Below are positions 8,549 through 42,760 of a DNA stretch of 64,000 nucleotides, one piece after another; the stretch's first letter is position 1; every line of letters starts with the position of its first letter. The stretch lies in assembly GCA_035605035.1 (NCBI GenBank), contig DATNHI010000106.1:849-64848 (forward strand). Reading direction: 5' to 3'. The translations under genes were made by a program, and so were the position numbers. The notes under the pieces are model-generated. The model ran no database searches and was not told the origin of the DNA. It saw nothing but the letters and a program-made list of their open reading frames with translations. Origin of the DNA: Verrucomicrobiia bacterium (GTDB taxonomy: Bacteria > Verrucomicrobiota > Verrucomicrobiia > Limisphaerales > UBA11358).

Positions 8549-8606
8549 AAATCTCGTCGCCCCCCCACCATTTTGCGGATCCAATCCCCCTGTGACACAC
8601 GGGCGC
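8549..8606 (+). repeat. ghost copy of the purM 5' leader/start region
   Basis: Core ttttgcggatccaatccccctgtgacac (8571-8598) matches ttttgcggatttaatctccctgtgaaac (9866-9893, contains the purM GTG) at 24/28 nt by hand count. Weaker similarity on both flanks. Confidence 0.6.
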
Positions 8607-8634
8607 TTCGCCGTAAAGACTTTGCCTGAAGATT

Positions 8635-8976
8635 TCAGCCAATGCCTTCGAGCCGGTCGGTATAGACGTTCACCAGCTTGTGGGATTTGAGCAGCGTTTC
8701 AACCTGCGGCCAGACGCGGGCGAGCAAGGCATGAAAAACATTGCGGCGGAGATTGCCGAATCGCAGATGCACCACCCGTGGCGGCGGCGATTGCGTGATA
8801 ATCCGGTCTGAAAAATCCGCATCCTTGCTCACGATGACCAAATCATGTTTCCGGGCAAATTCCCAGATCTGTGAATCAGTTGGCTGCCTGGCGATTTTGG
8901 ATGTGGAAACAATGGGAAGCTTCGGCGAAAACCGCAGCCGCGTGGGCAGGTTTTCATCGAAGAGAAAGCCCTTCAT
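8635..8976 (-). CDS. DUF5615-like (PIN-like) putative toxin
   Basis: MKGFLFDENLP...IWEFARKHDLVIVSKDADF. 4-nt ATGA overlap with the upstream DUF433 gene. ORF track start 9033 likely over-extended. Confidence 0.7.
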   Translation of the reverse strand: MKGFLFDENLPTRLRFSPKLPIVSTSKIARQPTDSQIWEFARKHDLVIVSKDADFSDRIITQSPPPRVVHLRFGNLRRNVFHALLARVWPQVETLLKSHKLVNVYTDRLEGIG

Positions 8977-9197
8977 GCCGGCTGCACCACGGAAAAATGA
9001 TTGCCCATCACGCGCGAAGCGTAATCGAGACACGCCTGAACGTCAGCACGCGTGAGCCTGGGATACTCCGCGAGCACGTCCTCGACCGAATCGCCGGCGG
9101 CAAGGAATTCCAACACCGTCTGCACCGTGATGCGGGTGCCGCGAACGACCGGCCGCCCGTTGCAAACATCCGGCTTGATGGAGATGCGTTCCGACAT
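8973..9197 (-). CDS. DUF433-like putative antitoxin
   Basis: ISIKPDVCNGRPVVRGTRITVQTVLEFLAAGDSVEDVLAEYPRLTRADVQACLDYA is the typical DUF433 pattern. Confidence 0.75.
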   Translation of the reverse strand: MSERISIKPDVCNGRPVVRGTRITVQTVLEFLAAGDSVEDVLAEYPRLTRADVQACLDYASRVMGNHFSVVQPA

Positions 9198-9486
9198 GCC
9201 GTTACGCTAGCACATTTATGCGTGAATCCAAGAGGAAAAGCGGCGCGCTGGAGCGACACGGGCATTTGCGCAGGAGCGCGGACAGCTTGTCCGCGAGTTG
9301 AATTTGCTGCTTCCATGCATACGCGGGCAGGCTGCCCGCGCTCCGAAATCAAAAGCCCGTCACGGCTGACATCTTTGTAGTCCAATAATCCAGATCAAGC
9401 TAAAGCTCCGTTAGGAGCGGCATCATCGGGAAATCTGCACGGAATATACCGCGCCTGCGAAGTTTCAATCGGCCCTGGCGTTACTG

Positions 9487-9717
9487 CTAAGGACCTACTG
9501 GCCGAGCAAGTTTTATATCTTTCATCTCGTTTTCGTCTGGTGTCGCCACCACCAGATTCACATTACAAGTGAATTGCCTGACCGTTTTTGAACCTCCACT
9601 GACCGCTGTATAAGTGTATTTACCGTTCGAATAAGCTGCCACCCTTATGACATCACCATCAACCACATTTCCCTCGCGGGCATAGTCGGTGAAATGGAGA
9701 CAGTGATTGCTGGTCAT
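9487..9717 (-). CDS. small hypothetical protein in an AT-richer patch
   Basis: ORF only (MTSNHCLHFTDYAREGNVVDGDVIRVAAYSNGKYTYTAVSGG...). Visibly lower GC than surroundings. No family recognised. Confidence 0.3.
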   Translation of the reverse strand: MTSNHCLHFTDYAREGNVVDGDVIRVAAYSNGKYTYTAVSGGSKTVRQFTCNVNLVVATPDENEMKDIKLARPVGP

Positions 9718-9886
9718 GATTGGTATAGGGAAACAAACAGCCGTATGCTTAAAAGTCTCAGGGAATCTAACTTGGGATCGCAGATGATTCCCCATCCGGT
9801 GCGGGCCTAAACAGCGGCCTTGCACCCGCCGATGTCATAAGTGAAATTTTCTCGCCCGCGAATCCTTTTGCGGATTTAATCTCCCT

Positions 9887-10978
9887 GTGAAACAAAAGGC
9901 TTATGCCCGGGCGGGCGTGGATATTGATTTGGGCAACCGGGTCAAATCCACCCTGCCGCAACTGCTCGCCGCCACGCATCGCCGTGAGGTGCTCGGCAAA
10001 GTCGGCGGCTTCGGTGGTTTGTTCGCGCTCGACCTCAAGAAATACCGCGAGCCGGTCCTCGTATCGTCCGTGGACGGCGTCGGCACCAAGCTCAAAATCG
10101 CCTTCGCCATGGACCGGCACGACACCATCGGCGCCGACCTCGTGAACCATTGCGTGAACGACATCGCCGTGCTGGGCGCCGAGCCGCTGTTCTTCCTGGA
10201 TTATCTCGGCACGGGCAAACTCGAGCCGCACGTTTTCACCGAAATCATCAAGGGCTTCGCGCGCGCGTGCTCCGAAAACCATTGCGCACTCATCGGTGGC
10301 GAGACGGCGCAGATGCCTGGCTTTTACCAGAAAGGCGAATACGACGTGAGCGGCACCATCGTCGGCGTCGTCGAAAAAAGCAAAATGCTCAACGGCCAGA
10401 AAACTGTGCGCGTCGGCGATGCGGTCGTTGGCATCGCGTCCAGCGGCTTGCACACGAACGGCTATTCGCTCGCCCGGAAAATCTTTTTCGAGCAATTGAA
10501 ATTGAAACCCACCAGCCGCGTGCCGGGACTGAAAGGCACGATTGGTTACGAACTGCTGAAAGTCCATGTAAGCTACGGGCCGTTGGTGCAAAAGTTAATT
10601 GCAAAGTTCAACAACGTAGCGCAGACGTCTCGTCTGCACAGCAAAAGCAGGCGGGACGCCTGCGCTACTATCAAAGCCTTCGCCCACATCACCGGCGGCG
10701 GGTTTGTGGACAACATCCCGCGCGTTCTCCCGAAAAATTGCGACGTCGTCATCCACAAAGGTTCGTGGGACATGCTGCCGATTTTCGAAATCATCGAAGC
10801 CAAAGGTGGTGTGCCGGAAACCGAGCTTTATCAGGTGTTCAACATGGGCATCGGCATTGTGGCGATTGTGTCGGCGGCCAAGGCAGGCGCGATTTTGAAA
10901 TTCATCCGCAGCCAGAAGCACCGGGCGTGGCTCATTGGCGAAGTGGTGAAGGGCCAAGGCCAGGCGCGGGTGATTTGA
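9887..10978 (+). CDS. purM: phosphoribosylformylglycinamidine cyclo-ligase (AIR synthetase) with an in-frame palindromic insertion
   Basis: AYARAGVDIDLGN...GGFGGLFAL...DGVGTKL...AHITGGGFVDNIPRVLP. GTG start. Confidence 0.9.
   Translation: MKQKAYARAGVDIDLGNRVKSTLPQLLAATHRREVLGKVGGFGGLFALDLKKYREPVLVSSVDGVGTKLKIAFAMDRHDTIGADLVNHCVNDIAVLGAEPLFFLDYLGTGKLEPHVFTEIIKGFARACSENHCALIGGETAQMPGFYQKGEYDVSGTIVGVVEKSKMLNGQKTVRVGDAVVGIASSGLHTNGYSLARKIFFEQLKLKPTSRVPGLKGTIGYELLKVHVSYGPLVQKLIAKFNNVAQTSRLHSKSRRDACATIKAFAHITGGGFVDNIPRVLPKNCDVVIHKGSWDMLPIFEIIEAKGGVPETELYQVFNMGIGIVAIVSAAKAGAILKFIRSQKHRAWLIGEVVKGQGQARVI
10621..10662. repeat. two small GC hairpins inside the purM CDS (in frame)
   Basis: gcagacg-tct-cgtctgc and caggcg-gga-cgcctg. 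Translated as QTSRLHSKSRRDACAT, just before the conserved AHITGGG. Confidence 0.8.
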
Positions 10979-10981: not shown

Positions 10982-11503
10982 ATGATATTGCGGACACCGT
11001 ATCGCTCAAGTCGCCCGTCAATTGACATGCTGGCAGTCAATTGGGCTGTCTTCAGTTTCGTGATGATGGTGGTTTTTGTCATTGGACTTGCGCTGCCGCA
11101 GCAATTCATAAAATTTGCAGTCTCCTTTCCGACAGGATTCATTCTGGCCGGTATTTTTGCGATCAGCTTGCACAGCCTCATAATCTTTCTTTTGTCGCGG
11201 TCCAAAAAACTGCGAACCGCTGCCGCATACACCGATGGAAGGGCGGTCAAAATATTGGAGTACACCGTATCAGCGGTCTGCTGGGTTTTATATTCTTTGT
11301 TGTGGTGGTATGGCGCGCTTGAAGCGACAGCGATTTTTCTTTTCGTTCCAACCTACTTTGTGACGTCGTTAGTAGTTTATCATGTCTGCTTCAACTACTT
11401 CGCGCGCGACGAAATCAACAAAAAGACTCTGTGGGTGTTGGTGGGAAATATCTGGACCCTCGGCCACTACGCCTTGATCTTTTTGAAGGTTCTCAAACCA
11501 TAG
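10982..11503 (+). CDS. hypothetical multi-pass membrane protein (cargo behind purM)
   Basis: 173-aa ORF with several hydrophobic segments. AT-richer than flanks. Starts 3 nt after the purM stop. Confidence 0.55.
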   Translation: MILRTPYRSSRPSIDMLAVNWAVFSFVMMVVFVIGLALPQQFIKFAVSFPTGFILAGIFAISLHSLIIFLLSRSKKLRTAAAYTDGRAVKILEYTVSAVCWVLYSLLWWYGALEATAIFLFVPTYFVTSLVVYHVCFNYFARDEINKKTLWVLVGNIWTLGHYALIFLKVLKP

Positions 11504-11509
11504 TTTTTT

Positions 11510-11585
11510 TCTCACAAACTCAAGCAGCCCGGCGTGGTTCATCGGTGAAGTCGTCAAAGGCAAAGGCGAAGCGCGGGTGGAATAA
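11510..11585 (+). pseudogene. ghost purM 3' end
   Basis: Reads ...AWFIGEVVKGKGEARVE* versus real PurM ...AWLIGEVVKGQGQARVI*. 42/55 nt identical by hand count, same frame and same stop position; several differences are synonymous. Confidence 0.8.
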
Positions 11586-11755
11586 GCCCGAAGTCCGAAT
11601 ACCGAAATCCGACCCGTCCTCCGTAGCAGCACTGCGGAGGGTGGAAAGAAATCCGAATTGCGAAATCCGATCAAGTGAGGCGAGCACTCACGAGCATTTC
11701 GGGCTTCGGGTTTCGGCCTTCTTTTGGAATTCGGATTTCGGGCTTCGGATTTATC
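11586..11755. repeat. composite heptad-periodic inverted repeat (atccgaa / ttcggat units) with a nested cctccgtagcag..ctgcggagg hairpin
   Basis: Left side cccgaagtccgaataccgaaatccga...atccgaattgcgaaatccga. Right side cttcgggtttcgg...ggaattcggatttcgggcttcggattt. Confidence 0.8.
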
Positions 11756-12787
11756 TCAGTAACTCATCCGGTCCAGCTTCACCTTGCCGCGGAAAATCCA
11801 GTAGATGCAGACGGTGTAGGCAATCACCAGCGGCACGCCGATGCACGCGATGATGAGCATAATCTCCAACGTCTTCGGCGAGGACGCGGCGTTGATAATC
11901 GTCAGGCTGTTTTCCGGGTTCGGTTGGCTGAAGACGAGATTCGGATATTGGTCCAGGCCAAACAACGCCATCAGCGTAATCATCGTCGCGCACGATGACA
12001 GGAACGCCTTCCAGTCGCGGCCGTGGTAAAATTCGCGCGGGATGTTGGCGATGGCGAGCATGTTCGCCAGCGCGATGCTGAACAACCAGGGATTTTCCCG
12101 CACGCGCGCCGCCATGTGCGGAACGTAGAGCAGTGTGGCCATCGTCGTGATGGCAGCGCAGATCACGAAGAAAATGATGCTGTTCATCGCCCAGCCGCGC
12201 AATTTGTCGTGGAGCGGGCCTTCGGTTTTCATCAGGCCGTAAATCGCGCCGTGCATCATGAACAACGCGACGGTCGTAACACCGAGCAGCAACGGATACG
12301 GTTTGAGCAAACCCAAAAACGTCCCGGCGAATTCGCCGTTTTTGTCAATCGGAACGCCCCAGGCGATGTTGCCCATCGCTACACCGATGAGCAACGCTGA
12401 CACAAGGCTGCCGGCAGAAAAGCCGATGTCCCACATCTGTCGCCACCAGCGCATCGGTTGTTTGCTGCGGAATTCGATGGCCACGGCGCGAAAGATCAGC
12501 GCCACCAGCAGCAGGACGAAAGCCAGATAAAAACCGGAGAACACCGTGGCATAAACGTTCGGAAACGCGGCGAAGAGCGCGCCGCCGCCGGTGACCAGCC
12601 AGACTTCGTTGCCGTCCCAGACAGGCCCGATGGCATTGAGCAACGTGCGCCGTTCCATATCATCCTTCGTGAACAGGTGGAGCGCGCCGATGCCGAGATC
12701 AAAGCCGTCGAGCATCGCGTAGCCGGTAAACAGCACCCCGACGAGGATGAACCAAGTAGTATTCAGATCAAAATTGGCAGAGTTCAT
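11756..12787 (-). CDS. cydB: cytochrome bd ubiquinol oxidase subunit II
   Basis: MNSANFDLNTTWFILVGVLFTGYAMLDGFDLG is a typical CydB N-terminus. ORF track start 12868 reads through the repeat (SDFGIRISDF) and is rejected. Confidence 0.85.
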   Translation of the reverse strand: MNSANFDLNTTWFILVGVLFTGYAMLDGFDLGIGALHLFTKDDMERRTLLNAIGPVWDGNEVWLVTGGGALFAAFPNVYATVFSGFYLAFVLLLVALIFRAVAIEFRSKQPMRWWRQMWDIGFSAGSLVSALLIGVAMGNIAWGVPIDKNGEFAGTFLGLLKPYPLLLGVTTVALFMMHGAIYGLMKTEGPLHDKLRGWAMNSIIFFVICAAITTMATLLYVPHMAARVRENPWLFSIALANMLAIANIPREFYHGRDWKAFLSSCATMITLMALFGLDQYPNLVFSQPNPENSLTIINAASSPKTLEIMLIIACIGVPLVIAYTVCIYWIFRGKVKLDRMSY

Positions 12788-12965
12788 GGGTGGCAGGAAA
12801 TCCGAAATCCGAATGCCGAAATCCGAAAGAAATCCGAATACCGAATTCCAAAAAAGCGCGGCGCACAATCACTGGCATTCCGGGTTTCGGATTTCGGGCT
12901 TCTTTCGGGTTTCGGATTTCGAGCCTCGGATTTTGGGCATCGGGTTTCGGATTTTGAGTTCATGG
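12788..12965. repeat. heptad-periodic inverted repeat filling the cydA-cydB spacer
   Basis: aatccgaaatccgaatgccgaaatccgaaagaaatccgaataccgaa ... ggtttcggatttcgggcttctttcgggtttcggatttcgagcctcggattttgggcatcgggtttcggatttt. Confidence 0.85.
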
Positions 12966-14327
12966 TTATTCCCGTGTTGGCAAAGCGAGCTTGCCTGCCG
13001 GGGTCAGGTCAGCGTCGTCCGGTCCGTGCTGGATCTTGTCGTTGAGCAGATAAATGAACACCGCGAACAGCAGGAAATAAATGAACGTGAACAAAATCAG
13101 CGACGAGAGAACGGCACTTTTTGCCACGACGGCCGACAAACCCGCCGGCGTGCGCATCAGGCCATAGACAATCCATGGTTGGCGTCCGACTTCGGCGGCG
13201 AACCAACCGAGCTGGTTGGCGATTTGCGGTCCGAGCACGGAGAAAACGAGGATCCACAGCAGCCAGCGCCGTTCATGCAGCGAGCCGTGGCGGAAATACA
13301 AAAAGCCCAGTGCTGCAATCGCGATCATCGTGAAGCCGACGCCTACCATGCCGTGAAAAAACAGGAACGACGCTTCGACCGGCGGACGGTCTTCGGGCGC
13401 GAAGGCGTCCAGACCGGTTACCATCGTTTTGGTTTCAAAGCCGACGAGAAAACTCAACAGCCCCGGCCATTGCAGGCCAACGACCTTCTCCTGTTTTTCG
13501 TCCACATAACCCACGAGCGTCAGCGGTGCGTTGGAAGAAGTTTCATAGAGTCCTTCAAACGCGGCGAGTTTGGCCGGCTGATTTTTCGCCACGCTTCGGG
13601 CACTGCTGTCACCGCTGACCAGTTGCAGCAGCGAGGCGACCAGCGCGACGGTCAAACCGACCCGTAGCGATGCCCGCGCAAAATCCAAGTTTCGTTTCTT
13701 CAGAAGATACCACGCGCTGACGCTCACCACGAGGAACGCGCCCGCCTGCCACGCCCCGCACAACACGTGAAACAGCCGGTCCACCATTGATGGATTGAAC
13801 ACCAGTTGCCAGAAATCCTTGACTTCCGCGCGCGCCACGCCGTTGTGAGTCACGATTTGGTAACCGGCGGGCGTCTGCATCCACGAGTTGGCGACGACGA
13901 TCCAGACCGCGCTGAAATGCGCGCCCAGACAGACCATGCACGTGGAAAAGAAATGCAGCTTGCGACTGACTTTGTCCCAACCAAACAACAACACCGCGAG
14001 AAAACCGGATTCGAGGAAGAACGCGAAGATCCCTTCCGCTGCCAGCGCGCTGCCGAACACGTCGCCGACAAAACGCGAATACGTCGCCCAGTTTGTGCCG
14101 AACTCGAATTCCATCACGATGCCGGTCGCCACGCCGATGGCGAAGGTGAGGGCGAAGACCTTCGTCCAGAATCGTGCCATCTGGTGATAGACCGGATTTT
14201 TGGTTTTGAGCCACAATCCCTCCATGCAGAGGAGCAGAATGCCAAGGCCGATGCTTAACGGCGGGTAGAGATAATGAAACGCGACCGTGGCCCCGAACTG
14301 GATGCGGGCAAGTGTCAATACATCCAT
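12966..14327 (-). CDS. cydA: cytochrome bd ubiquinol oxidase subunit I
   Basis: [28 protein letters not shown]...[12 protein letters not shown] are CydA hallmarks. Confidence 0.9.
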
Positions 14328-14419
14328 ACGCCCTAATTTTGCCGGGGCGAAGTCAAACGGTCAAGACGCCAAAAAAGGAATCAAAAAACATTTTCCCGAT
14401 TTGTTGATTTCCTGATTCA

Positions 14420-15784
14420 ATGCTTTCGGCAATGAAACTTCTGGTCATCGGTTCGGGCGGACGCGAACACGCGCTGGTGTGGAAACTCGCGCAGTCACCG
14501 CACGTCACCCAACTGTGGTGCGCGCCGGGTAACGCTGGAATCGGACAGGAAATAGTGGGACAGGCTTCCAGCCTGTCTGTGGCAACGAACAGGCAAGATG
14601 CCTGTGCCACGGCACGGGCCGCAAAAAATTCTCCCCTTGTCGAATGCGTCAATATTTCCGCCGGAGATTTGCCAAAGCTTCTCGCGTTCGCGCAGGAGAA
14701 GAAAATCGAACTTACCGTCGTCGGCCCGGACAATCCGCTGGCGCTAGGCATCGTGGATTTATTCCAAAAAAACGGCCTGCGAATCTGGGGTCCGAACCGG
14801 AAGGCCGCGCAGTTCGAGTCGTCCAAGGTTTTCTCGCAGCGGTTCGTGGAGAAATACGGCATCCCAACGGCGCGCGCCGGGACGTTTTCGGTGGCAGGAC
14901 CCGCCAAGGCCTTTGCCGCGTCACTCGGCGGCAAATGCGCCGTGAAAGCCGACGGCCTCGCGCTCGGCAAAGGCGTTCTGATTTGCACGAACATGGCAGA
15001 AGCGAACAAGGCGATTGACGAAATCCTGGTCGGCAAAGCCTTTGGCGCGGCGGGCGCAAAGATTGTCATCCAGGAATTTCTGGAGGGCATGGAAATTTCG
15101 CTGCACGCGCTGTGCGACGGTAAAACGGCGAAGCTTTTTCCGACGTCACAGGACCACAAACGCGCGCTGGACTGTGATAAAGGTTTGAATACAGGCGGCA
15201 TGGGCACCTATTCGCCGACGCCGTTCCTGAGCGAAAAGGAATTGGCGGAGACGAGCCGCAAGATTCTGGAACCGTTCACGCGTGGTTGCGCGGCGGAGGG
15301 TATTGATTTTCGCGGCATTCTATATCCCGGCATCATGCTCACGAAGTCCGGCCCGAAGGTGCTGGAATTTAACGCCCGGCTCGGTGACCCGGAAACGCAA
15401 GTCTATCTGCCGCGGCTGGAAAACGACCTGGTCGAACTGCTCGACGCCAGCGCCAGCGGCACACTCGATAAAATGGAATTAAAATGGAGTCCGGTGGCGG
15501 CGGTTTGTGTGGTCATGGCCAGCGGCGGTTATCCCGGCAGTTACACGAAGGGCCAGCCCATCCTGGGTCTGGCCGAAGCGGCGAGATTGCCGAACACAAA
15601 AGTATTTCATGCTGGAACGGCATTGAAGGACGGTCAAATCGTGACGAACGGCGGCCGGGTCCTTGGGGTGACCGCGCTCGGCAAGGATTTGAAATCCGCA
15701 CAGGCGGCGGCCTATGCGGCAGTTGAAAAAATCCATTTCGACGGCGCGCATTTCCGCCGCGATATCGCGGCGAAGGCGCTTTGA
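14420..15784 (+). CDS. purD: phosphoribosylamine--glycine ligase with an in-frame palindromic insertion
   Basis: MKLLVIGSGGREHALVWKLAQSP (likely start 14432)...CAPGNAG...ATP-grasp core...GGRVLGVTALG. Confidence 0.9.
   Translation: MLSAMKLLVIGSGGREHALVWKLAQSPHVTQLWCAPGNAGIGQEIVGQASSLSVATNRQDACATARAAKNSPLVECVNISAGDLPKLLAFAQEKKIELTVVGPDNPLALGIVDLFQKNGLRIWGPNRKAAQFESSKVFSQRFVEKYGIPTARAGTFSVAGPAKAFAASLGGKCAVKADGLALGKGVLICTNMAEANKAIDEILVGKAFGAAGAKIVIQEFLEGMEISLHALCDGKTAKLFPTSQDHKRALDCDKGLNTGGMGTYSPTPFLSEKELAETSRKILEPFTRGCAAEGIDFRGILYPGIMLTKSGPKVLEFNARLGDPETQVYLPRLENDLVELLDASASGTLDKMELKWSPVAAVCVVMASGGYPGSYTKGQPILGLAEAARLPNTKVFHAGTALKDGQIVTNGGRVLGVTALGKDLKSAQAAAYAAVEKIHFDGAHFRRDIAAKAL
14559..14605. 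repeat. two small hairpins inside the purD CDS (in frame)
   Basis: gacaggc-ttcca-gcctgtc and acaggca-aga-tgcctgt. Translated as GQASSLSVATNRQDACAT in the loop after CAPGNAG. Confidence 0.8.
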
Positions 15785-15816
15785 CCGCGAAATTTTATTA
15801 ATGACCCGGAACGTGC

Positions 15817-17370
15817 ATGTTGGTTGCCCGGCCACTTAATGCCACGATGCTCTCCCGACTCTTCCGCCGCAAATCGCTCGACCAACTGAGTGCCGAGGCG
15901 ATAGCGCCGCAGTTTCAGCTCAAACGCGCGCTCGGGCCGGTGCACCTGACATTGCTCGGAGTGGGCGCGGTCATCGGCGCCGGCATCTTCTCTTCCATCG
16001 GCGACGCGGTGGCGGGTGGGCAGAATCATCCCGGCGCCGGCCCGGCAGTCATTGTGTCGTTTGTGTTGTCGGCGATTGCGTGTGCCCTGGCGGGATTGTG
16101 CTACGCGGAGTTTGCCGCCATGGTGCCGGTGTCCGGTTCGGCTTATACCTATACTTACGCCACGTTGGGCGAACTGGCCGCGTGGATCATCGGTTGGGAT
16201 CTTATCCTCGAATACGCCATCGGCAACGTCGCCGTGGCGATCTCGTGGTCGGCTTACTTTCAGGAACTGCTGCGCGGGCTGGGCCTGCACTGGCCGTTAT
16301 GGCTGGGCGTGGATTTTCGTTCGGCACTGCAGGCCGCGAAGCAGATCGCCGCGGCCAAGGCCGCCGGCATTGATCCGGCGACCCTGGATGCAACGGTGCG
16401 AGAGGCAGCCCAGGCGTTTACGGACGCGCCGCGCCTGGCTGGCGTGCCGCTCATCTTCAACTTACCCGGGTTCGGCATTGTGATGCTGTTGACCTGGATT
16501 CTGGTCATCGGCATCCGCGAAAGTTCCTGGTTCAATTCGGCGATGGTGATTGTGAAGCTCGTCATCCTGGCTTTTTTCATGACTTTGGGCGCGTTCTACG
16601 TGAAACCGGAAAACTGGACGCCATTTGCGCCCAACGGCTGGGCCGGCATCACCAGCGCCGCGGCGATCATCTTTTTTGCTTACATTGGTTTTGATGCGGT
16701 TTCAACCGCCGCCGAGGAAACCCGCCAGCCGCAGCGCAACGTGCCAATCGGCATTCTCGCCAGCCTCGCCGTTTGCACGGTCATCTACATCGTGGTGGCG
16801 GTGGTGCTGACCGGCCTCATACGGTGGGACAAACTGGGCACGGCCGAGCCGCTGGCTACGGCATTTTCCGGGCTGGGGCTGAACTGGGCCGTAGGCATTA
16901 TTTCCGTCGGCGCGCTGGTGGCGAACACGTCGGTGCTGCTCGTCTTTCAGTTCGGGCAACCGCGCATTTTTTTCAGCATGGCGCGCGACGGCTTGTTGCC
17001 GGCCTGGGCGGCAAAAGTTCATCCCCGGTACCGCACACCGCACGTGACGACCATCCTGACCGGTGTGCTGGTCGCGGGCTTTGCCGGGATTACGAACCTC
17101 AACGAAATGCTGGAGCTTTGCAACATCGGTACGCTGTTTGCTTTCGTGCTGGTGGCGACCGGCATCCTGATCCTGCGGCGCACGGACCCCGACCGCCCGC
17201 GATCGTTTCGCACGCCGCTGTGTCCGTGGGTGCCGTTGGCGGCCATCCTTTCCTGCGGCTGGTTGATGCTCAAGTTACCGTGGAAAACCTGGTGGTGGTT
17301 CTTTGTCTGGCTCGCCGTCGGGCTGCTGATTTATTTTCCCTACAGCATGCGGCGGAGCCGGCTCCGGTGA
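15817..17370 (+). CDS. APC-family amino acid permease (cargo behind purD)
   Basis: About 12 hydrophobic segments. GVGAVIGAGIFSSIG and FFAYIGFDAVSTAAEE motifs. Alternative start 15847. Confidence 0.8.
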   Translation: MLVARPLNATMLSRLFRRKSLDQLSAEAIAPQFQLKRALGPVHLTLLGVGAVIGAGIFSSIGDAVAGGQNHPGAGPAVIVSFVLSAIACALAGLCYAEFAAMVPVSGSAYTYTYATLGELAAWIIGWDLILEYAIGNVAVAISWSAYFQELLRGLGLHWPLWLGVDFRSALQAAKQIAAAKAAGIDPATLDATVREAAQAFTDAPRLAGVPLIFNLPGFGIVMLLTWILVIGIRESSWFNSAMVIVKLVILAFFMTLGAFYVKPENWTPFAPNGWAGITSAAAIIFFAYIGFDAVSTAAEETRQPQRNVPIGILASLAVCTVIYIVVAVVLTGLIRWDKLGTAEPLATAFSGLGLNWAVGIISVGALVANTSVLLVFQFGQPRIFFSMARDGLLPAWAAKVHPRYRTPHVTTILTGVLVAGFAGITNLNEMLELCNIGTLFAFVLVATGILILRRTDPDRPRSFRTPLCPWVPLAAILSCGWLMLKLPWKTWWWFFVWLAVGLLIYFPYSMRRSRLR

Positions 17371-17384
17371 GCCAAGTCGTGAAA

Positions 17385-34185: not shown

Positions 34186-34322
34186 AAGCTCCAAGCACCA
34201 AGCGCCAATCTCCAGAGAAGCGCCAAATTCCGAACTCCAGGAAGTCTGACGGCAACGAGCGCGTTGTTTGGAATTTGAAGTTTGGAATTTCTCTGGTGCT
34301 TGGTGCTTGAATGTTGGAGCTT
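34186..34322. repeat. heptad-periodic inverted repeat in the truB-ribF spacer
   Basis: agctccaagcaccaagcgccaatctccagagaa ... ttctctggtgcttggtgcttgaatgttggagct, followed by a T-run. Confidence 0.8.
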
Positions 34323-34330
34323 CTTTTTTT

Positions 34331-35254: not shown

Positions 35255-35528
35255 TTAGGTTTAATGCAACCACTTTTACGGTAGCAACTTATATGCCAAG
35301 CAGAACGGCCTCGTCCTGATTTGAGTTTTTTCCGTCCATACGATTGTTCTTGAGTTTTCCGCAAATGCGGTTAGCATGGCGGGGTGTCAGTCTTCCGGTA
35401 TTCTGGCGTTCGCAGTCCCTGAAGTTCAACGGACCGATGAACAATTGTGCAGAACCGACGACGACCGGTCGTGAAGCAGAATCACCCTGTTTCACTGAAC
35501 TAAAACGGATTTTTCAGGTCTGATATTT

Positions 35529-37418
35529 ATGTCGCATCGAAAAAATACGCCGTCAGCCGGCGCCCCGCGCAAGCATAAGCATGGCGGCGGGCGCGGCGCA
35601 GGAACCAAACCGGTCCCGGCGCGGCGACGTTTTGTGATTTCCATTGCCAGGCGGGGACCGTCCAAACCGCTGGACACCAACGGAAAAGCCAAGCCGCACG
35701 CGGCCAATCTCTCTGCGGCCGGCACGCAAAAATTGCCGCCCGGCGGTCATGCCCCCGCGCCCATGGTTTCTTCCGTGGATTTGACGGAGACGGTCAAAAC
35801 GCTGCTCCACCTCGCCCAGGAGCACGGCTACATCACTTACGACGACATCAATGACGTTCTGCCGGACAACCTCAGTCCGGAGGATTTGGACGCGTTGCTG
35901 ACCAAATTGCGCAGTCTCGACGTGGAAATCGTCATGGACCAGGCCGAGGCCGAACGCACCCGGCAGCCCGAACCCGCGCAGCAGGAGGAAGCGGACGAGG
36001 ATGCGCGTCTCGAAATCCTCGATGACCCGGTCCGCATGTACATGAACCAGATGGGCAAAGTCCCGCTGCTCACGCGCGAACAGGAAGTCGAAATTTGCAA
36101 GCGGATCGAAGAGGCCGAGATCGAGATGAAGCGCATCGTTTACAGCCTCGGCTTCACCGCGAAGGAACACATCGCCATCGCGGAAAAACTGCTGTCCGAG
36201 CCGCCGAAGGAGCGGTTCGACCGGGTGATTGTGGACAAGAAAATTGCCAATCGCGAAGGCCATTTGCGCGATTTGCGCAAGCTCATCAAGAAAGTCCATG
36301 CGCTCGACCAAAAGGTGGACGCGAAGTATTTTGCCTGGCAGAAGGCCCTCCAGAAGGGCCGCAAGGAAAAGCTGCAGCGCGAGTTGAAGAAACTCGGCCT
36401 CAAGCTGCAGGAGATGTTTCCCCGTTTTTTCTACAAACAAAAGGTCGTCGAGGAAATGATCATCGTGGCGGGCAACGTCCATGAGAAATTTCAGGCGAGC
36501 CTGCGGCACATCCAGGAACTGGAAGCGTTGCGCACCACCACTGAGCGGCGGGCGGCGCTGGAAGCCGAGCGCGCCAAAATCCAGGTGCTCGAACAGTTCG
36601 TGCGGATGCCGCGCGAGGAATTTTTCAAGGTGTTCAGCGAATTGAAAGGCGCCGCCGACCGCGGGCTGAAGGCCAAGACGCACATGGCCGAGGCCAACCT
36701 GCGGCTCGTCGTGTCCGTCGCCAAAAAATACACCAACCGGGGCCAGTCGTTCCTGGATTTGATCCAGGAAGGCAACATCGGGTTGATGAAAGGCGTCGAG
36801 AAATTTGAATATCGCCGCGGCTACAAGTTTTCCACCTACGCCATCTGGTGGATTCGCCAGGCCATCACGCGCTCCATTGCCGACCAGGCCCGCACCATTC
36901 GCATCCCGGTGCACATGATTGAAATCATGAACAAGCTCTGGCGCGCGCAGAAGCAGCTCACCCAGGAACTGGGGCGCGAACCGACGCCGGAGGAGATTGC
37001 CGATGAAATGCACATGCCGGTCGCGCGCATCCACGCGCTGCTCAAGATGGCGCAACAGCCGGTGTCCCTGCACGCGCCGGTCGGCGATGACGGCGATGTG
37101 AGCGTGGGCGATTTCATCGAAGACAAGACCGCTGAGAATCCGTCCGAAGTCACCAGCTACAGCCTGCTCCGGGAAAAACTGAGCGACGTGCTGACGACGT
37201 TGACCGAGCGCGAACGCAAAATTCTCGAAATGCGTTTCGGCCTGCTCGACGGCTACGAGCGCACGCTCGAGGAAATCGGCAAGATGTACAACGTCACGCG
37301 GGAACGCATCCGCCAGATTGAAGCCAAGGCGCTGCGCAAGCTGCGGCACCCGACGCGCGTCCGCCATCTCCAGGGATTCCTCGACACGCCGGAGCCCGAA
37401 GTGAGCACGACAGCGTAG
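35529..37418 (+). CDS. rpoD: primary RNA polymerase sigma factor RpoD
   Basis: [21 protein letters not shown]...[58 protein letters not shown]...[30 protein letters not shown]. Start uncertain (basic N-terminal extension; MVSSVD is an alternative). Confidence 0.9.
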
Positions 37419-37419
37419 T

Positions 37420-37516
37420 CATTTACGATTTACGATTTTTGATTTACGATTTGCCGGTGCGCGCAAGTTGGCAAGGAGCGCGTAAATCGTAAATCGTGAA
37501 TCGTATATCGTAAATC
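37420..37516. repeat. heptad-periodic inverted repeat (atttacg units) downstream of rpoD, probable terminator-like structure
   Basis: atttacgatttacgatttttgatttacgattt ... gcgtaaatcgtaaatcgtgaatcgtatatcgtaaat. Confidence 0.8.
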
Positions 37517-37518: not shown

Positions 37519-38199
37519 ATGAAAGTGACTTACTACGGTCACGCTTGTTTTTCCGTGCAAGTAAAAGAGCGCACGCTGCTATTCGACCCGTTCATTTCCG
37601 GCAACCCGCTCGCCGATGGCATTGACGTAAAAAAGGTGCCGGCGGATTTCATTCTCGTTTCGCACGGCCACGATGACCATCTTGACGACGCGGTCGCAAT
37701 TGCCAAACGCACCCACGCGCTGGTGATTGCGAATTTTGAGGTCGCCAACTGGCTCGAACAACACGGCGCGCCGCGGGTGCACGCGCTGAATCATGGCGGC
37801 GGCTTTCAATTCGATTTTGGCCGCGCCAAATTCGTCAATGCCGTCCATTCCAGCACAATGCCCGATGGCGCCAATGGCGGAAACGCCGGCGGCTTTGTCG
37901 TCGAGAGCGCCGAGGCGAATTTTTATTACTCCGGCGACACCGCTTTGACGTTGGACATGAAACTCATTGGCGAATCCACAAAGTTGAAATTGGCCGTCCT
38001 GTGCATCGGCGACAATTTCACGATGGGGCCGGACGACGCGGTCAAAGCTGCCGGGTTTGTGCGCTGCGACGAAATCCTCGGTGTGCATTACGACACCTTC
38101 CCGCCCATCCGGATTGACCATGCCGCCGCGCAGGAAAAATTCAGGGCTGCCGGAAAGAACCTGCATCTGCTGCGCATCGGCGAGACGCGCGATTTCTAG
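37519..38199 (+). CDS. UPF0173-type metallo-beta-lactamase-fold hydrolase
   Basis: MKVTYYGHACFSVQ...LLFDPFISGNP...LVSHGHDDH. Confidence 0.75.
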   Translation: MKVTYYGHACFSVQVKERTLLFDPFISGNPLADGIDVKKVPADFILVSHGHDDHLDDAVAIAKRTHALVIANFEVANWLEQHGAPRVHALNHGGGFQFDFGRAKFVNAVHSSTMPDGANGGNAGGFVVESAEANFYYSGDTALTLDMKLIGESTKLKLAVLCIGDNFTMGPDDAVKAAGFVRCDEILGVHYDTFPPIRIDHAAAQEKFRAAGKNLHLLRIGETRDF

Positions 38200-39326
38200 T
38201 TATTCGGGTCCACGATGTGCAGGTCAATGCCCGGCGCGTGGTGGAGGAAAAATTGCAACACATTCGGGCGCGTGAATTGCCACCAGCGCCGTTCCGTCGT
38301 ACCCAGCACGACGAGACGGACGCTGTTTTCGCGGCAGAATTTCAGCAGGGCTTCACAAATATTCTCGCTTTCCAGAATGGTGACGCTGCCGCCCAGTTCC
38401 GTTGCCAACTGGACGTTTTGCATGAATTGTCGCTGCAAATCCGACGGAATGCGTATCGGGTCCTCCTTTTTACGGCGGACGTAAACGGCAATCCATTCGC
38501 GATTCAACCGCCCCGCGATGCGCGACGCCGTCCGCAGGAGTTTCGCCGTCGTGACGGGATTGGTGCTGATGAACACCGCGACTTTCTCGCCCACCTCGGC
38601 CGGCAACGCCGTGCCGGCGCGCGGTCGGCGGTCAAGCGCGGCGGCGGTTTCGCGCAACGCCAGCTCGCGCAGGGTGTTCAAATTGTTCTCTGTGAAAAAA
38701 TTCTCGAGCGCGGCCGCGGCGCGGTCGGCGGGGTAAATTTTCCCCAGCTTCAACCGCTCGCGCAATTCCTCGGCCGTCAGGTCAATGTTCACAATCTGGT
38801 CGGCCTCCAGCACAAAACGGTCGGGCACACGCTCGCGCACGTCCACGCCCGTCGCCCGCAGCACCGTGTCGTGCAGGCTTTCCAGATGCTGGATGTTCAT
38901 GGCCGTGATGACATTGATGCTCGCCAGCAGCAGGTCATGCACTTCGAGGTAACGTTTGGGATGTTGCGAGCCGGCAACATTTGTGAACGGTAATTCGTCA
39001 ATGATGCAAACCGTCGGATACCGTTTGAAGATGGCGTCCACGTCGAGCACCTCAACCGTGGTGTTGCCGTGCGGCACTTTTTTGCGGGGAATAATTTCCA
39101 GACCTTCGAGCAACGGCTCCGTTTCCTTGCGCCCGTGCGTTTCAATCCAGCCGATGACCACGTCCACGCCCGCTTTTTTGAGGCGATGCGCCTCCTCCAG
39201 CATCGCGTAGGTTTTGCCGACCCCCGCGGCGTGCCCGAGATAAATCTTCAACTTTCCCAGCCGGCTCTTTTCGATGAGCCGCAGGAAATCTTCCGGCTTC
39301 AAGCGGGGCGCGGCGGGCGGTTCCAC
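38196..39326 (-). CDS. kdpD: short KdpD: KdpD N-terminal sensor domain plus USP-like domain, no TM or histidine-kinase part
   Basis: GKLKIYLGHAAGVGKTYAMLEEAHRLKKAGVDVVIGWIETHGRKET...CIIDELPFTN. C-terminal USP-like KVAVFISTNP...RLVVLG. Ends at 376 aa. Confidence 0.8.
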   Translation of the reverse strand: MEPPAAPRLKPEDFLRLIEKSRLGKLKIYLGHAAGVGKTYAMLEEAHRLKKAGVDVVIGWIETHGRKETEPLLEGLEIIPRKKVPHGNTTVEVLDVDAIFKRYPTVCIIDELPFTNVAGSQHPKRYLEVHDLLLASINVITAMNIQHLESLHDTVLRATGVDVRERVPDRFVLEADQIVNIDLTAEELRERLKLGKIYPADRAAAALENFFTENNLNTLRELALRETAAALDRRPRAGTALPAEVGEKVAVFISTNPVTTAKLLRTASRIAGRLNREWIAVYVRRKKEDPIRIPSDLQRQFMQNVQLATELGGSVTILESENICEALLKFCRENSVRLVVLGTTERRWWQFTRPNVLQFFLHHAPGIDLHIVDPNN

Positions 39327-39338: not shown

Positions 39339-39476
39339 CTATTTTTGCGGCAACTGGTCGAGCGCGAAGTTGAAACCTCTCCGTGCAACGGCAAGATCCT
39401 CCCGCGATGGCAACTGTATCGCCCGCGAAACCGGCAGCCCTCTCTCTGTCACTTGGCTACCAAGTGACCGACCCAT
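39339..39476 (-). pseudogene. ghost kdpC 3' end, 12 nt upstream of kdpD
   Basis: Minus-strand reading ...QVTERGLPVSRAIQLPSREDLAVARRGFNFALDQLPQK* versus real KdpC ...QVPRVARARGLSEARV...RDLGVFGEPRVNIMTLNFALDSLAGK*. Core gtcgagcgcgaagttgaa versus gtcaagcgcgaagttcaa (16/18). Confidence 0.75.
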
Positions 39477-40559
39477 TTAATGTTTTTTAAGTCTTAACCA
39501 TCGCGTGAACAGACAGCCCAAACCCATCAAACAGAGTAGCAGGACTGACCAGTAAGCAAGTCTTGTGTATTTATGAGGCGGTGGGAAAGCGATCACTTTT
39601 TTTGCGAGATGCAGGGTTTCCCTTTCACCTTGCAGAGCCAAACTGTGATATGCACCCACCGAAATAGTTATCACGTTTGTCAAACCGGATGGTATTGCAA
39701 TGGTTCCACCCCAGCCTCTGCCCCATGCAACTAAAGTCCCATCCGACTTGAGGGCTAGACGATGCTGTTCTCCAGCGGCGATTGACACAACATTCGTCAA
39801 ATCCGCTGGGGGTGTGACCTCGCCAAAATTTACATCATGTCCCCAACCCACTACGCGACCGTCAGATTTAAGCGCCAAGCAGTAATGAATTCCGGCTGCG
39901 ATTGCCACCACATTGGTCAAATCGGCTGGAACATTTGTCTGTCCGTATGAGTTATCACCCCAAACGACGACTGTGCCGTTCGACTTCAATGCCATGCTGT
40001 GTTCACCGCCACCGGCGATTGCCACCACATTCGCCAAATCCGGCGGCACTCTGGTTAGATTGGCATTTCCGGGCAATCTGCCTCCCCAGCATACAACTGT
40101 GCCATCCGATTTTAACGCAAGGCTGTGATAATAACCCGCTGCTATGGCGATTACGTTAGTCAGGTTTGCTGGCACTTCAATTTCATCATCACCATCGTAG
40201 CCCCAACCTATAACTGTGCCATCGTCCTTCAGTGCAAGACAGTGCCATTCTCCGGCGGCAATGGCTGTGACGTTCGACAAACCTTCTGGCGTTTTTACCG
40301 GAAAAATGCCACCACCGCCAAGACAAGCTCCCCACGTAATAACCGTCCCATCATTTTTTAACGCCAAGTTGTGACGTAAACCCGCTGCAATGGCGACGAC
40401 GTTGGTTAAGCCCACCGGCACACTTAACTCGCCGAATCCGGCATTCTGTCCCCAAGCCATGATCTGGTTGGCCGGATGAACGAGCGTCTGCATGCTCAAA
40501 TAGAAAATAACGGACAAACAGAACCTGCCAGCACATCGCTGGACTGAAACAGTTTTCAC
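39477..40559 (-). CDS. RCC1-repeat beta-propeller protein with signal peptide and C-terminal TM anchor
   Basis: Repeats of the type NVVAIAAG..H.LALKSDGTVV.WG. C-terminal WSVLLLCLMGLGCLFTRW. AT-richer than flanks. Confidence 0.8.
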   Translation of the reverse strand: MKTVSVQRCAGRFCLSVIFYLSMQTLVHPANQIMAWGQNAGFGELSVPVGLTNVVAIAAGLRHNLALKNDGTVITWGACLGGGGIFPVKTPEGLSNVTAIAAGEWHCLALKDDGTVIGWGYDGDDEIEVPANLTNVIAIAAGYYHSLALKSDGTVVCWGGRLPGNANLTRVPPDLANVVAIAGGGEHSMALKSNGTVVVWGDNSYGQTNVPADLTNVVAIAAGIHYCLALKSDGRVVGWGHDVNFGEVTPPADLTNVVSIAAGEQHRLALKSDGTLVAWGRGWGGTIAIPSGLTNVITISVGAYHSLALQGERETLHLAKKVIAFPPPHKYTRLAYWSVLLLCLMGLGCLFTRWLRLKKH

Positions 40560-40588
40560 CGTGAAATGTTAATCCTGCTGTTGCCGGT

Positions 40589-41893
40589 TTGGGAATCCCA
40601 ATTTTCGTCTGGCTTTGGCCTTTCTTGAAGTTTAAACATCGAAGACAGATGAAAATCATTCCATTGGCGGCAACCCTTTTCTGCGGATTATTTTTCATTG
40701 ATGAGAATGCACACGCACAAACCAACTTGGAATGTATTGGGCACGTCAACGATTCACCATGGGGGGCATTTGATGTGGCGGTTGCCGGGCATTATGTGTT
40801 CCTTGCAAACGGCAGTGATGGTCTCCGAATCTACGATGTATCAACCCCAACAAATCCCATCTGCGTCGGACATGCGAAGGACGGAGGGGTTGGCGCAAGC
40901 GCAATGGGAGTAGCATTATTCGGTGATTATGCCTACATCGCCAACAGCAACGACGGAATGCGTATCTACGATGTTTCCGATCCAACTCACCCGATTAACG
41001 TAGGACGCAGCCCTGAAATCGCCTCCCCAGCAGCTTCATTTGGCATAGCGATTTCTGGTGTGCAACAGCACAGGGCTTTTGCACCCATCCGGTCATGGCT
41101 GTTCGGAAAGCGTAAGTCAGGAGCACGGTATGCCTTCCTAGCAAACTACAATGATGGACTGCGAATCTACGATGTTTCCAATCCCGCCAAACCAAAGCGT
41201 ATTGGCCGTGTGAACGACGGCGGCACAGCTCTTTATGCGGCTGTGTCTGGAAAATACGTATTTCTGGCGAACGACTATGACGGGCTACGGGTATATGACG
41301 TTTCTAATCCCGCCAGTCCGACCAACGTCGCAAGGGTCAAAGATATGGGTTATCCGTGGGGAGTGGCCGTCGCTGGGAAATACGCCTATGTTGCAGACAA
41401 TTTTTACGGCTTTTCAATTTTTGATATTTCTGACGTGACACATCCGGTCGGCGTGGGACATATCAATGACAGTCCACCGCCTCTGTCATTTATTGAAGCT
41501 CATTCGCATACGACCAATAGCAAAACTCACATTGACGGCTCCGCATACGGCATAGCCGTTGCGGGTAATCATGCGTATCTTGCTAATTTTGGCGATGGGG
41601 TTCGGGTTTATGATATTTCCAATCCGACGAACCCAATTAACATCGCGCACACGGCCACAAACTATCAGGGATTCTCAAAGAGAATCGCCGTATCGAGGGG
41701 CTTCGCTTTTGTTGCTAACGCAAATGACGGACTCCGAATTTACAAAGTGTGGGATGACACTCCAACCGCGTCGGAATTTCCTGTTTACACTTTCGCAGTC
41801 ATCGCCCTGAGTTTAATTTTGATTGTGGTCGCAATATCAATCTGGCGATTCAAAGTCAGTTCAGCAAAGCACGAAGCCGACAATTCTTCATAA
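40589..41893 (+). CDS. LVIVD-repeat beta-propeller protein with signal peptide and C-terminal TM anchor
   Basis: Repeats YVFLANGSDGLRIYDVSTPTNP / YAYIANSNDGMRIYDVSDPTHP and similar. Likely start 40649 (MKIIPLAATLFCGLFF). C-terminal FAVIALSLILIVVAISIW. Confidence 0.8.
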   Translation: MGIPIFVWLWPFLKFKHRRQMKIIPLAATLFCGLFFIDENAHAQTNLECIGHVNDSPWGAFDVAVAGHYVFLANGSDGLRIYDVSTPTNPICVGHAKDGGVGASAMGVALFGDYAYIANSNDGMRIYDVSDPTHPINVGRSPEIASPAASFGIAISGVQQHRAFAPIRSWLFGKRKSGARYAFLANYNDGLRIYDVSNPAKPKRIGRVNDGGTALYAAVSGKYVFLANDYDGLRVYDVSNPASPTNVARVKDMGYPWGVAVAGKYAYVADNFYGFSIFDISDVTHPVGVGHINDSPPPLSFIEAHSHTTNSKTHIDGSAYGIAVAGNHAYLANFGDGVRVYDISNPTNPINIAHTATNYQGFSKRIAVSRGFAFVANANDGLRIYKVWDDTPTASEFPVYTFAVIALSLILIVVAISIWRFKVSSAKHEADNSS

Positions 41894-42097
41894 ACATGAG
41901 GGGGTAGCCTTCGCTTCCGGCGAGTTCCTTTCACCGCTTTCCCAAGCGGTTCAAATCTCCCCGGAGCGGAGAAGAAATTTGTTTTGTGGAACGTTTTCCC
42001 CAAGGTGGCTCGGTTTGAGCCAGACGGGCCACCTCGCAACCTTGGGCTGTTTTCTTCTGCTCCGTTGGAGCATCAGGCGGGACGCCCGTGCTACTTT

Positions 42098-42760
42098 TCA
42101 TTTGCCAGCCAGACTGTCAAGCGCGAAGTTCAATGTCATGATGTTCACGCGCGGCTCGCCGAAAACGCCGAGGTCGCGGCCATTCGTGTTTTGTTGAACG
42201 AGTTCGCGGACGCGTGCTTCCGACAGGCCGCGCGCCCTGGCCACGCGCGGAACCTGCAACTCCGCGTTGGCCACGCTGATGTGCGGGTCAAGGCCGCTGC
42301 CGGAAGCGGTTGCGGCATCGGCGGGAACGATGGCATTGGTTGCGAGGCCGTTGTCGGAACGGCAGGTGGCAATGTTCTGCGTGACGTTGGCGACCAGATT
42401 GGATGAGGTCGGGCCGAGATTGCTGCCGCCGGAATGCGTCGCGTCAAAATTGTTCACGCTCACCGCAGATGTTGGATCGCCTGCGCTCGCCGCCGACGGA
42501 CGCGGATGAAAATATTGCGCGCCGGTGAAATTTTGCGCAAGCATTGCCGAGCCGCGCACCCCGCCGGAACGGTCATGCAGCAAACTGCCGTTGGCCTGGT
42601 TCGGGAACAGCAATTGCGACACTCCAAAAACAACGAGTGGATAGAGACCGCACAAAATGACGGCGAAAAAAAGTGTCGCCACCAGCGACCGGCCGAATTC
42701 AGTCAAAATGGTTTTCATAAATTTTTTGCAGGAGACGACGTGAGGAGTCTCATTTTTCAA
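42098..42760 (-). CDS. kdpC: K+-transporting ATPase subunit C
   Basis: Typical KdpC: TM helix then ...GSNLGPTS...SGSGLDPHIS...NFALD. Likely start 42718 (MKTILTEF). Confidence 0.9.
   Translation of the reverse strand: MKNETPHVVSCKKFMKTILTEFGRSLVATLFFAVILCGLYPLVVFGVSQLLFPNQANGSLLHDRSGGVRGSAMLAQNFTGAQYFHPRPSAASAGDPTSAVSVNNFDATHSGGSNLGPTSSNLVANVTQNIATCRSDNGLATNAIVPADAATASGSGLDPHISVANAELQVPRVARARGLSEARVRELVQQNTNGRDLGVFGEPRVNIMTLNFALDSLAGK

Follow-up and report, generated by a model that had tools for sequence, protein, structure and literature searches.

Gene gain at hot spots without the machinery of mobile elements is poorly documented beyond a few toxin loci. The closest known analogue of the arrangement reported here is found in the orphan arrays of Rhs, contact-dependent inhibition (CDI) and type VI secretion system (T6SS) loci (Kirchberger et al. 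2017, PMC5361080; Koskiniemi et al. 2014, PMC3967940): in these a conserved portion of a gene serves as the anchor, new DNA comes to lie alongside it, the old 3' end is displaced, and arrays arise by successive events; no dedicated recombinase is known for the process, and the displaced fragments can recombine back with the main gene. At Rhs loci and at those of T6SS effectors, a process resembling homology-facilitated illegitimate recombination (HFIR) has been proposed to account for the orphan arrays with their displaced 3' ends (Kirchberger et al. 2017, PMC5361080). In Escherichia coli, molecules with one homologous end entered mostly by a single crossover of their circular form, with end duplications of 109-950 bp; in that study classic HFIR was rare and was predicted to yield deletions (PMC3240628). 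Here we describe a comparable arrangement in a stretch of 64,000 nucleotides (nt), hereafter the window, from a Verrucomicrobiia bacterium (GCA_035605035.1, contig DATNHI010000106.1, positions 849-64,848), a subdivision-3 verrucomicrobium (Limisphaerales/Pedosphaera-like). At purM, purD, glyA and kdpC the working, or 'real', gene end is accompanied, beyond one or more intervening genes (the 'cargo'), by a short displaced copy of the same terminus, which we term a ghost.

The window shares with the Rhs, CDI and T6SS loci the anchoring, displacement and arraying just described. Unlike in those loci, the anchors here are housekeeping genes (purM, purD, glyA, kdpC), both gene ends are involved and the displaced pieces measure only 33-140 nt; furthermore, the cargo is unrelated to its anchor and follows no toxin-immunity logic of retention, and some ghosts are seemingly kept as expression signals. 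The arrangement equally recalls Campbell-type insertion-duplication (PMC3240628) in its combination of an intact copy, an insert and a partial duplicate with no site-specific enzyme, but the homologies are shorter than in the laboratory cases of Campbell-type insertion and HFIR, and for classic HFIR deletions would have been expected. The ghosts are true remnants of gene termini; the pattern recurs and involves starts as well as ends of genes. In this lineage, where genes adjoin closely, they mark places between conserved genes that are hot spots of insertion. What is new is the presence of displaced ends at housekeeping genes, at both gene ends, across a verrucomicrobial order; the literature searched has no description of insertion-duplication or HFIR occurring naturally at many housekeeping genes throughout a bacterial order. 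This is not a new mobile system: the ghosts are displaced gene ends that appear to arise from recombination-driven gene gain, more widespread than the window alone, and in uncultured Verrucomicrobia of soil and peat they offer a readable scar of such gain beside ordinary housekeeping genes. Their most likely origin, with a probability of about one half, is homology-anchored insertion-duplication at hot spots.

The gene order of the window was derived from a listing of open reading frames (ORFs) together with Pfam scans. The real ends, ghosts, cargo and directly adjoining genes are the following (window coordinates; + forward strand, - reverse strand):

8549-8599, +: purM 5' ghost, equivalent to 43 nt upstream of the ORF plus its first 8 nt
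8600-9843, -: cargo 5' of purM, consisting of the DUF5615 gene and the small ORFs 9008-9385 and 9487-9825
8635-9033, -: DUF5615 gene (Pfam), within the cargo 5' of purM
9887-10978, +: purM ORF (Pfam AIRS/AIRS_C); real 5' region from 9844 (9844-9894), real 3' end 10916-10978
10982-11503, +: hydrophobic 173-aa ORF, cargo 3' of purM, no Pfam family
11522-11585, +: purM 3' ghost (RAWFIGEVVKGKGEARVE*, the asterisk denoting the stop), 47/57 identical to the real end
14420-15784, +: purD; real 3' end 15668-15784
15817-17370, +: amino-acid permease (Pfam), purD cargo 1
17399-17456, +: purD ghost 1, stop kept
17470-19185, -: fusion of sigma-70 regions 2 and 4 with a secretin-like part (Pfam), purD cargo 2, convergent to purD
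19244-19360, +: purD ghost 2, 111 nt at 79% in repeat family D12
19363-21927, -: second fusion of sigma-70 regions 2 and 4 with a secretin-like part, resident neighbour of purD
21909-24122, +: fused low-molecular-weight phosphatase/RpiB/serine hydroxymethyltransferase (glyA) ORF; real glyA 3' end, type B, 24053-24122
24116-25684, -: third fusion with sigma-70 regions 2 and 4 (Pfam), glyA cargo, convergent
25666-25735, +: glyA 3' ghost (type A), directly 5' of the rho leader
from 25729, +: rho
38196-39326, -: KdpD sensor-domain gene, start at 39326
39339-39371, -: kdpC 3' ghost, class I (NFALDQLPQK*), 12 nt from the kdpD start (39326)
39357-39371 and 42116-42130, -: the two copies of AACTTCGCGCTCGAC
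39477-40559, -: RCC1-repeat gene (Pfam), kdp cargo
40589-41893, +: LVIVD-repeat gene (Pfam), kdp cargo
42098-44812, -: kdpC and kdpB (Pfam KdpC); real kdpC 3' end 42098-42172, class II (…LNFALDSLAGK*)

Self-comparison of the window recovered all six pairs of real and ghost ends named in the original prediction, at or near the places given there. Four of these pairs are significant on their own: the purM 5' pair (9844-9894 against 8549-8599, 39/51 identical, z=10.3 relative to shuffles), the purM 3' pair (10916-10972 against 11522-11579, 47/57, z=18 relative to shuffles) and the two purD pairs, in which 15727-15784 matches ghost 1 at 17399-17456 (53/58, BLAST E 6e-16) and 15683-15778 matches ghost 2 at 19259-19354 (79/96, BLAST E 3e-20). 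The glyA and kdpC pairs, in contrast, are weak alone and are validated by relatives. For glyA, 24090-24122 and 25704-25735 agree at 27/32 positions (z=4.7, with the best shuffle equalling the score), and the window ghost matches the working glyA end of one relative (L046) at 52/67 and the ghost of another (L015) at 54/67 positions. For kdpC, ghost and real end are identical at 16/18 positions only, and about 30 metagenomic loci have an intact kdpC-kdpD junction that is near-identical to the window's ghost, 12-nt spacer and kdpD start taken together, the match sitting at the same 31-nt distance from the kdpD start. Both purD ghosts adjoin the next convergent gene directly.

Some particulars of the earlier description have to be amended. 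Ghost lengths had been put at 55-140 nt; measured against their own real ends they are 33-117 nt. The purM cargo had been said to stop about 6 nt before its ghost, and its ORF ends 18 nt before the detectable ghost; the ghost itself has a 1-nt indel at the 5' edge, yet 19 codons and a stop are kept. Three of the six cargos had been counted as sigma fusions: those at 17470-19185 and 24116-25684 are indeed bounded by ghosts, but the gene at 19363-21927 lies beyond the last one and is, in relatives, the resident next to purD. Part of the arrangement is reproduced in an independent assembly, a Joint Genome Institute (JGI) metagenome contig (L081), which is 99.97% identical to window positions 11321-17732 (6.4 kb) and has the same order of ghost, cydBA, purD, permease and ghost; an exact-protein look-up for strain variants led to this single contig, which is essentially the window sequence.

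For comparison, a purD search yielded 80 loci from uncultured subdivision-3 Verrucomicrobia, some of the records being named Limisphaerales or Pedosphaera. The backbone purM-(cydBA)-purD-...-glyA-...-rho is kept across these relatives, with 0-5 sigma-fusion genes and other genes in the interval from purD to the glyA operon. Ghosts of the purD 3' end are present in 27 of the 79 loci scanned, with a maximum of four per locus: their left boundaries vary, lying 14-120 nt into the last 150 nt of the gene, and the copies are 74-98% identical with no shared perfect core. The mirror image, a ghost of the gene start, is seen for purD in 11 of 81 loci (two copies in L069) and for purM in 3 of 38. Ghosts of the purM 3' end occur in three loci, namely the window, L013 and L038 (~100 nt in the latter two), and a 57%-identical homologue of the 173-aa ORF at 10982-11503 lies between purM and purD in L072. 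In the nearest relative, L001, homology to the window starts at 9842, the cargo 5' of purM being common only over 9263-9457; its site 3' of purM is empty, and its purM tail does not discriminate between the real and the ghost end of the window. A crude census of isolated short direct repeats found that, after gene-internal matches, the commonest class pairs a gene 3' end with an intergenic copy, several of the 'internal' repeats being themselves termini mis-scored through ORF extensions; repeats with one genic and one intergenic copy mostly involve gene termini.

Upstream of rho, glyA ghosts are present at 15 loci (14 relatives and the window). They measure about 70 nt, belong to one sequence type (LDTAAKVRQRV...FPLPY*), are well conserved across species and adjoin the rho leader in the same way as the intact junction of relatives does. 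The window ghost contains TTGACT followed after 17 nt by TGTTGA, and those of the relatives TTGACT-18 nt-TATTGA, which we read as a putative promoter. In four genomes glyA lies directly 5' of the rho leader with no ghost, and its working end is of the ghost type (type A). A neighbour-joining tree of the glyA body splits these four between two positions, both within ghost-bearing clades, which suggests either loss of the cargo by recombination between real and ghost end or spread of the arrangement by recombination. The third sigma fusion, which occupies the glyA-rho interval of the window, has orthologues in the same place in at least 10 relatives and is absent in others: it is an old insertion common to many species. 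The 737-aa ORF in which the window's glyA resides (21909-24122) joins a low-molecular-weight phosphotyrosine phosphatase, RpiB and serine hydroxymethyltransferase, a triple fusion that seems to be conserved because its tblastn matches are uninterrupted and full length in about 30 relatives.

At the kdp site 80 metagenomic kdpC loci were compared (L082-L161). kdpD starts 12 nt after the kdpC stop in about 30 of them, and 0.2-7.5 kb is inserted in about 20. Ten insertion-bearing relatives and the window (11 loci) hold the last 33 nt of kdpC (NFALDQLPQK*) at a constant distance to kdpD, while the working kdpC of these ghost-bearing loci ends otherwise (GLAGK* or similar). The 15 nt of AACTTCGCGCTCGAC (NFALD) at the kdpC end are invariant in the intact junctions of dozens of loci, synonymous positions included, and together with the next 30 nt can fold into a hairpin (GCCGCAAA...TTTGCGGC) whose end coincides with the start codon of kdpD. 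kdpD genes of the type seen in L116 have their own 61-nt upstream region, and insertions next to these carry no ghost; in L118, real kdpC end and ghost are separated by 4 nt. Some ghosts probably persist as the promoter or initiation region of the next gene.

The cargo is heterogeneous. Spacers of 48-270 nt between real end and ghost consist of repetitive extragenic palindromic (REP)-like repeats or repeats like miniature inverted-repeat transposable elements (MITEs), common to several genomes. Larger cargos include sigma fusions, AMP-binding enzymes, toxin-antitoxin pairs of the PIN, RHH and YafQ kinds, and response regulators and kinases; further cargo comprises a GH97 enzyme, ZnuABC transporters, a cytosine methylase, a Type ISP enzyme and a permease. 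The small ORFs 9008-9385 and 9487-9825 of the cargo 5' of purM have no family match. As had been predicted, the cargo of the window shows no mobility machinery: Pfam scans of its ORFs gave no integrase or transposase, and the scores for terminal inverted repeats of all six cargos lie within those of shuffled controls. Neither integrase nor transposase was found in 34 small or unknown cargo ORFs scanned with the full family list. A transposon or insertion sequence was rejected on the absence of terminal inverted repeats in the window cargos, on the absence of a transposase family in the window cargo, the 34 ORFs and the best 25 of 41 families of relatives' cargo, and on duplications that vary from 33 to 140 nt. 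A diversity-generating retroelement was likewise rejected: there are no adenine-specific mismatches, the substitution spectra are mixed in five pairs, and Pfam shows no reverse transcriptase family in the region.

The sigma genes belong to an ECF-like sigma-70 family (regions 2 and 4) with long C-terminal extensions, in two cases with a match to the secretin family. Most relatives have a gene of this sigma-fusion family convergent to purD, and up to five copies occur downstream of purD. Of the 854-aa ORF at 19363-21927, relatives conserve the N-terminal 265 aa beside the glyA operon; where the sigma portion is missing (L003, L006), no other part of the ORF is conserved. The three sigma fusions of the window reflect residents of the hot spot and not mobility of the sigma genes themselves.

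The differences between real and ghost ends fall on codon positions 1, 2 and 3 in the proportion 56/67/216 (216 of 339 at the third position). When they are polarised against the consensus of 80 working ends, ghost-specific changes number 41/52/68, which is near uniform, and real-specific changes 11/11/90, which is coding-like. The baseline among working ends and this polarised test show that neutral decay of the ghost, together with coding constraint on the real end, explains the third-position excess, which is not evidence for import. Ghost-specific changes look neutral, as in a non-coding copy decaying beside a constrained gene end, whatever its origin; the synonymous differences that had been taken as a sign of allelic divergence fit such neutral decay instead. 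The suggestion that ghosts match real alleles of other strains had a mixed outcome: 5 of 18 are nearest to their own real end and the others to a foreign one, in comparisons of short sequences. That the working end is itself an imported allele is not supported, though a donor that was a close relative would leave no trace.

Shared junctions show that units of cargo plus ghost have been reshuffled between arrays. A toxin-antitoxin cassette between two purD tails has the same left and right junctions in L014, L037, L002 and L080, standing directly after the real end in the first three and between the third and fourth ghosts in L080. The junction of tail, 33 nt and permease is common to the window, where the tail is the real end, and to L080, where it is a ghost; the junction of the sigma-gene start at 17470-19185 with its ghost is common to the same two, and the order of the units differs. 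L080 3' of the permease is not alignable, no microhomology can be read there, and blastx of the array remnants gave no match. Genome-specific variants are common to both copies flanking the toxin-antitoxin cassette, and in L014 a core of the pair is 51/52 identical, the outer ghost being decayed, which indicates gene conversion between copies. In the 12 cases with short spacers the sequence following the stop of the real end is, by inspection, never repeated after the ghost: this argues against plain tandem duplication, which in its simple form we rejected for these cases.

We favour a reading in which DNA from a related cell's copy of the hot spot would bring a short conserved piece of a gene end together with foreign genes, and would integrate via that piece, either by a Campbell-type single crossover of circularised DNA or by an HFIR-like one-ended event. 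The gene would remain intact and the cargo be placed alongside it, with a 5'-truncated copy (3'-truncated at gene starts) displaced to the far side, where it would stay joined to the original neighbour; no dedicated recombinase would be required. The integration step itself we infer. As expected of displacement, the ghost-kdpD and ghost-rho-leader junctions are the intact junctions of relatives, and as expected of successive events, there are up to four ghosts per locus, with toxin-antitoxin, permease and sigma-gene units recurring in different positions. The displaced copy decays neutrally, as its substitutions show, and is probably retained where it carries signals of the neighbour, as the promoter-like TTGACT-18-TATTGA of glyA and the last 33 nt of kdpC before kdpD may do. 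Real and ghost ends act as direct repeats: gene conversion between them and reshuffling of units are shown by the variants and junctions described above, and loss of the cargo with a swap of tails is probable, to judge from the phylogeny of the glyA sites. The ghosts show that a tight junction, at which a gene seems to end in the promoter or initiation region of its neighbour, can be opened only by duplicating the common sequence, and the duplicated ends appear to make the hot spot modular by way of these three processes. If general, short duplicated termini could be a genome-wide marker with which to date and count integrase-independent gene gains. This reading retains one half of the first hypothesis of the original prediction, in that recombination driven by homology at conserved flanks accounts best for the data, and drops the other, in which the working end of a donor allele displaces the native end. 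The second hypothesis, an insertion mechanism targeting stop-codon-proximal sequence, is not supported, given the mirror-image 5' ghosts, boundaries at purD that range over 14-120 nt, the heterogeneous cargo and several events that are ancient and common to many species rather than recurrent.

A number of observations weigh against homology-anchored insertion-duplication. Homologies of 33-140 nt are poor substrates for RecA, although the lengths may have been eroded, as in L014. For the large cargos at the kdpC site (66 ORFs of relatives) the absence of integrase and transposase extends to the 25 best-populated of 41 Pfam families. Distances over the last 150 nt of purD and over the gene body are equally congruent in ghost-bearing and ghost-free genomes, the mixed comparison of ghosts with their nearest alleles used sequences that are too short to decide, and no pair of near-identical genomes differing by cargo and ghost was found, so that no recent event has been caught. 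Insertion and a long staggered duplication of the target, if they happened at once, would look no different. Finally, the 48-270-nt spacers with REP-like repeats only and the 4-nt spacer of L118 need no import of genes. These spacers suit a reading in which the duplication came first, a tight junction being copied by slippage, template switching or filling of a long staggered break, with REP-like repeats and genes accumulating later, by unrelated processes, in the harmless gap so formed. We consider this order of events, the main rival, possible, if doubtful. It also agrees with the neutral changes of the ghosts beside the coding-like changes of the real ends, as for a copy made in place, with working ends that are not phylogenetically odd, and with the occurrence of ghosts at tight junctions (12 nt for kdpC-kdpD; glyA-rho leader) and of ghost-free insertions where kdpD is of the L116 type with its 61-nt spacer. 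However, the 12 short-spacer cases would each need a duplication ending almost exactly at the stop, and two things are left unexplained: that the cargo has its source in the corresponding hot spot of relatives, and that tail-cargo junctions are conserved amid differing array order.

The remaining alternatives invoke either an enzyme, a function or an error. An intact gene end, an element and a displaced partial copy are the classical footprint of integrase-borne elements, and islands integrated at the 3' ends of tRNA or protein genes resemble our loci in that the end is restored, a partial copy lies at the far end and tandem integrations give arrays of partial copies; the ghosts would then be the attR side of decayed or trans-mobilised elements of tyrosine or serine integrases targeting protein-gene ends. 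This is quite improbable: no integrase or recombinase was seen in the window cargo, in the 34 small or unknown ORFs or in the best 25 of 41 families of 66 cargo ORFs, there are at least five unrelated targets including 5' as well as 3' ends, ghost boundaries vary with no fixed identical core, and the cargos are tiny, some consisting of one housekeeping-type gene, others of repeats over 48-270 nt. Also unlikely is the idea that this verrucomicrobial order has a cassette system without an integrase, in which recombination would take place at fragments of housekeeping-gene termini: cargo with a gene-end copy could loop out, insert again next to another such copy, real or ghost, whether in its own genome or in a different one, and so build integron-like arrays beside purD and other core genes; in a more radical version an unrecognised trans-acting enzyme may make long staggered cuts at tight gene junctions. 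As in integron arrays, a repeated site stands between single-gene cassettes and the same cassette is found at different positions across genomes. An integron proper was rejected, for unlike attC hairpins the repeats are coding fragments of the adjacent housekeeping gene (here purD) whose hairpin is not kept in the ghosts, the cassettes lie in either orientation and may carry their own upstream regions, and no integrase (IntI) is seen in 6.9-44.8 kb of the window.

Were the ghosts functional elements instead (promoters, terminators, leader RNAs), similar to gene ends yet kept or spread for what they do, this would suit the conservation of the ~70-nt glyA ghost in many species, with its promoter-like motif before the rho leader, the invariance of AACTTCGCGCTCGAC at synonymous sites before kdpD, and the stable fold of the real purD tail (z -2.7), where third-position conservation is above that of the rest of the last 150 nt in 80 genomes. 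The purD ghosts, however, lose this hairpin: ghost 1 folds no better than shuffles, and the stem changes are uncompensated (by inspection, with no formal covariation count). A terminator consensus scan flags neither real nor ghost ends, so that terminators were rejected, and Rfam has no match at the ghosts, which together with the uncompensated stems disfavours a conserved structured RNA. Ghosts are moreover homologous to coding ends, frame and stop included, and their changes are near uniform; function accounts for their retention and not for their origin, and as an explanation of origin we hold it to be highly improbable. Chance similarity or assembly artefact might be argued from the weakness of the glyA and kdpC pairs of the window taken alone, and from the many relatives that are draft metagenome bins. 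Against this stand the E values of the other pairs (~1e-6 to 3e-20), recurrence in dozens of independent assemblies, both long-read and short-read, and the JGI contig that reproduces the order, by which this explanation is effectively refuted.

Outside the ghost-bearing sites, the same part of the window contains the following genes:

6956-8413, -: dinB
11756-14327, -: cydB and cydA
28222-37418, +: nusA-infB-rbfA-nrnA-truB-ribF-rpoD
37519-38199, +: MBL-fold gene

Several repeats and RNAs were noted in passing. A REP-like family with units of the AAATCCGAA type flanks cydB, at 11574-11752 between the purM ghost and the cydB stop and at 12788-12933 between cydA and cydB; the two copies share 109 nt at 80% identity, plus an inverted match. 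The 109-nt pair 11644-11752/12825-12933, a seventh repeat pair in the self-comparison, is this REP-like palindromic element and no gene ghost. A REP-like palindrome also lies, apparently in frame, within the purM coding sequence at 10647-10663 (GCAGGCGTCCCGCCTGC, encoding ...SRRDACAT...). purM of L001 has a different repeat at that spot and, near the C-terminus, a 33-nt element identical to window 11613-11645 in inverted orientation, the L001 stretches concerned being 6600-6640 and 6875-6907. In purD the codons for RRDIAA form a perfect 18-nt palindrome, CGCCGCGATATCGCGGCG, at 15755-15772. Rfam matched only two RNAs, both away from the ghosts: a c-di-AMP riboswitch that precedes the kdp operon (46892-47055, -) and, near it, the gene for a class A bacterial RNase P RNA (48690-49126, -). 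A palindromic element of about 95 nt separates rpoD from the MBL-fold gene (37421-37515) and has a related copy 25 kb off, at 62285-62378. The kdpD gene at 38196-39326 (-) encodes the N-terminal sensor and Usp-like part only (376 aa), without a histidine-kinase domain, and relatives have the same form, their tblastn matches spanning its full length.

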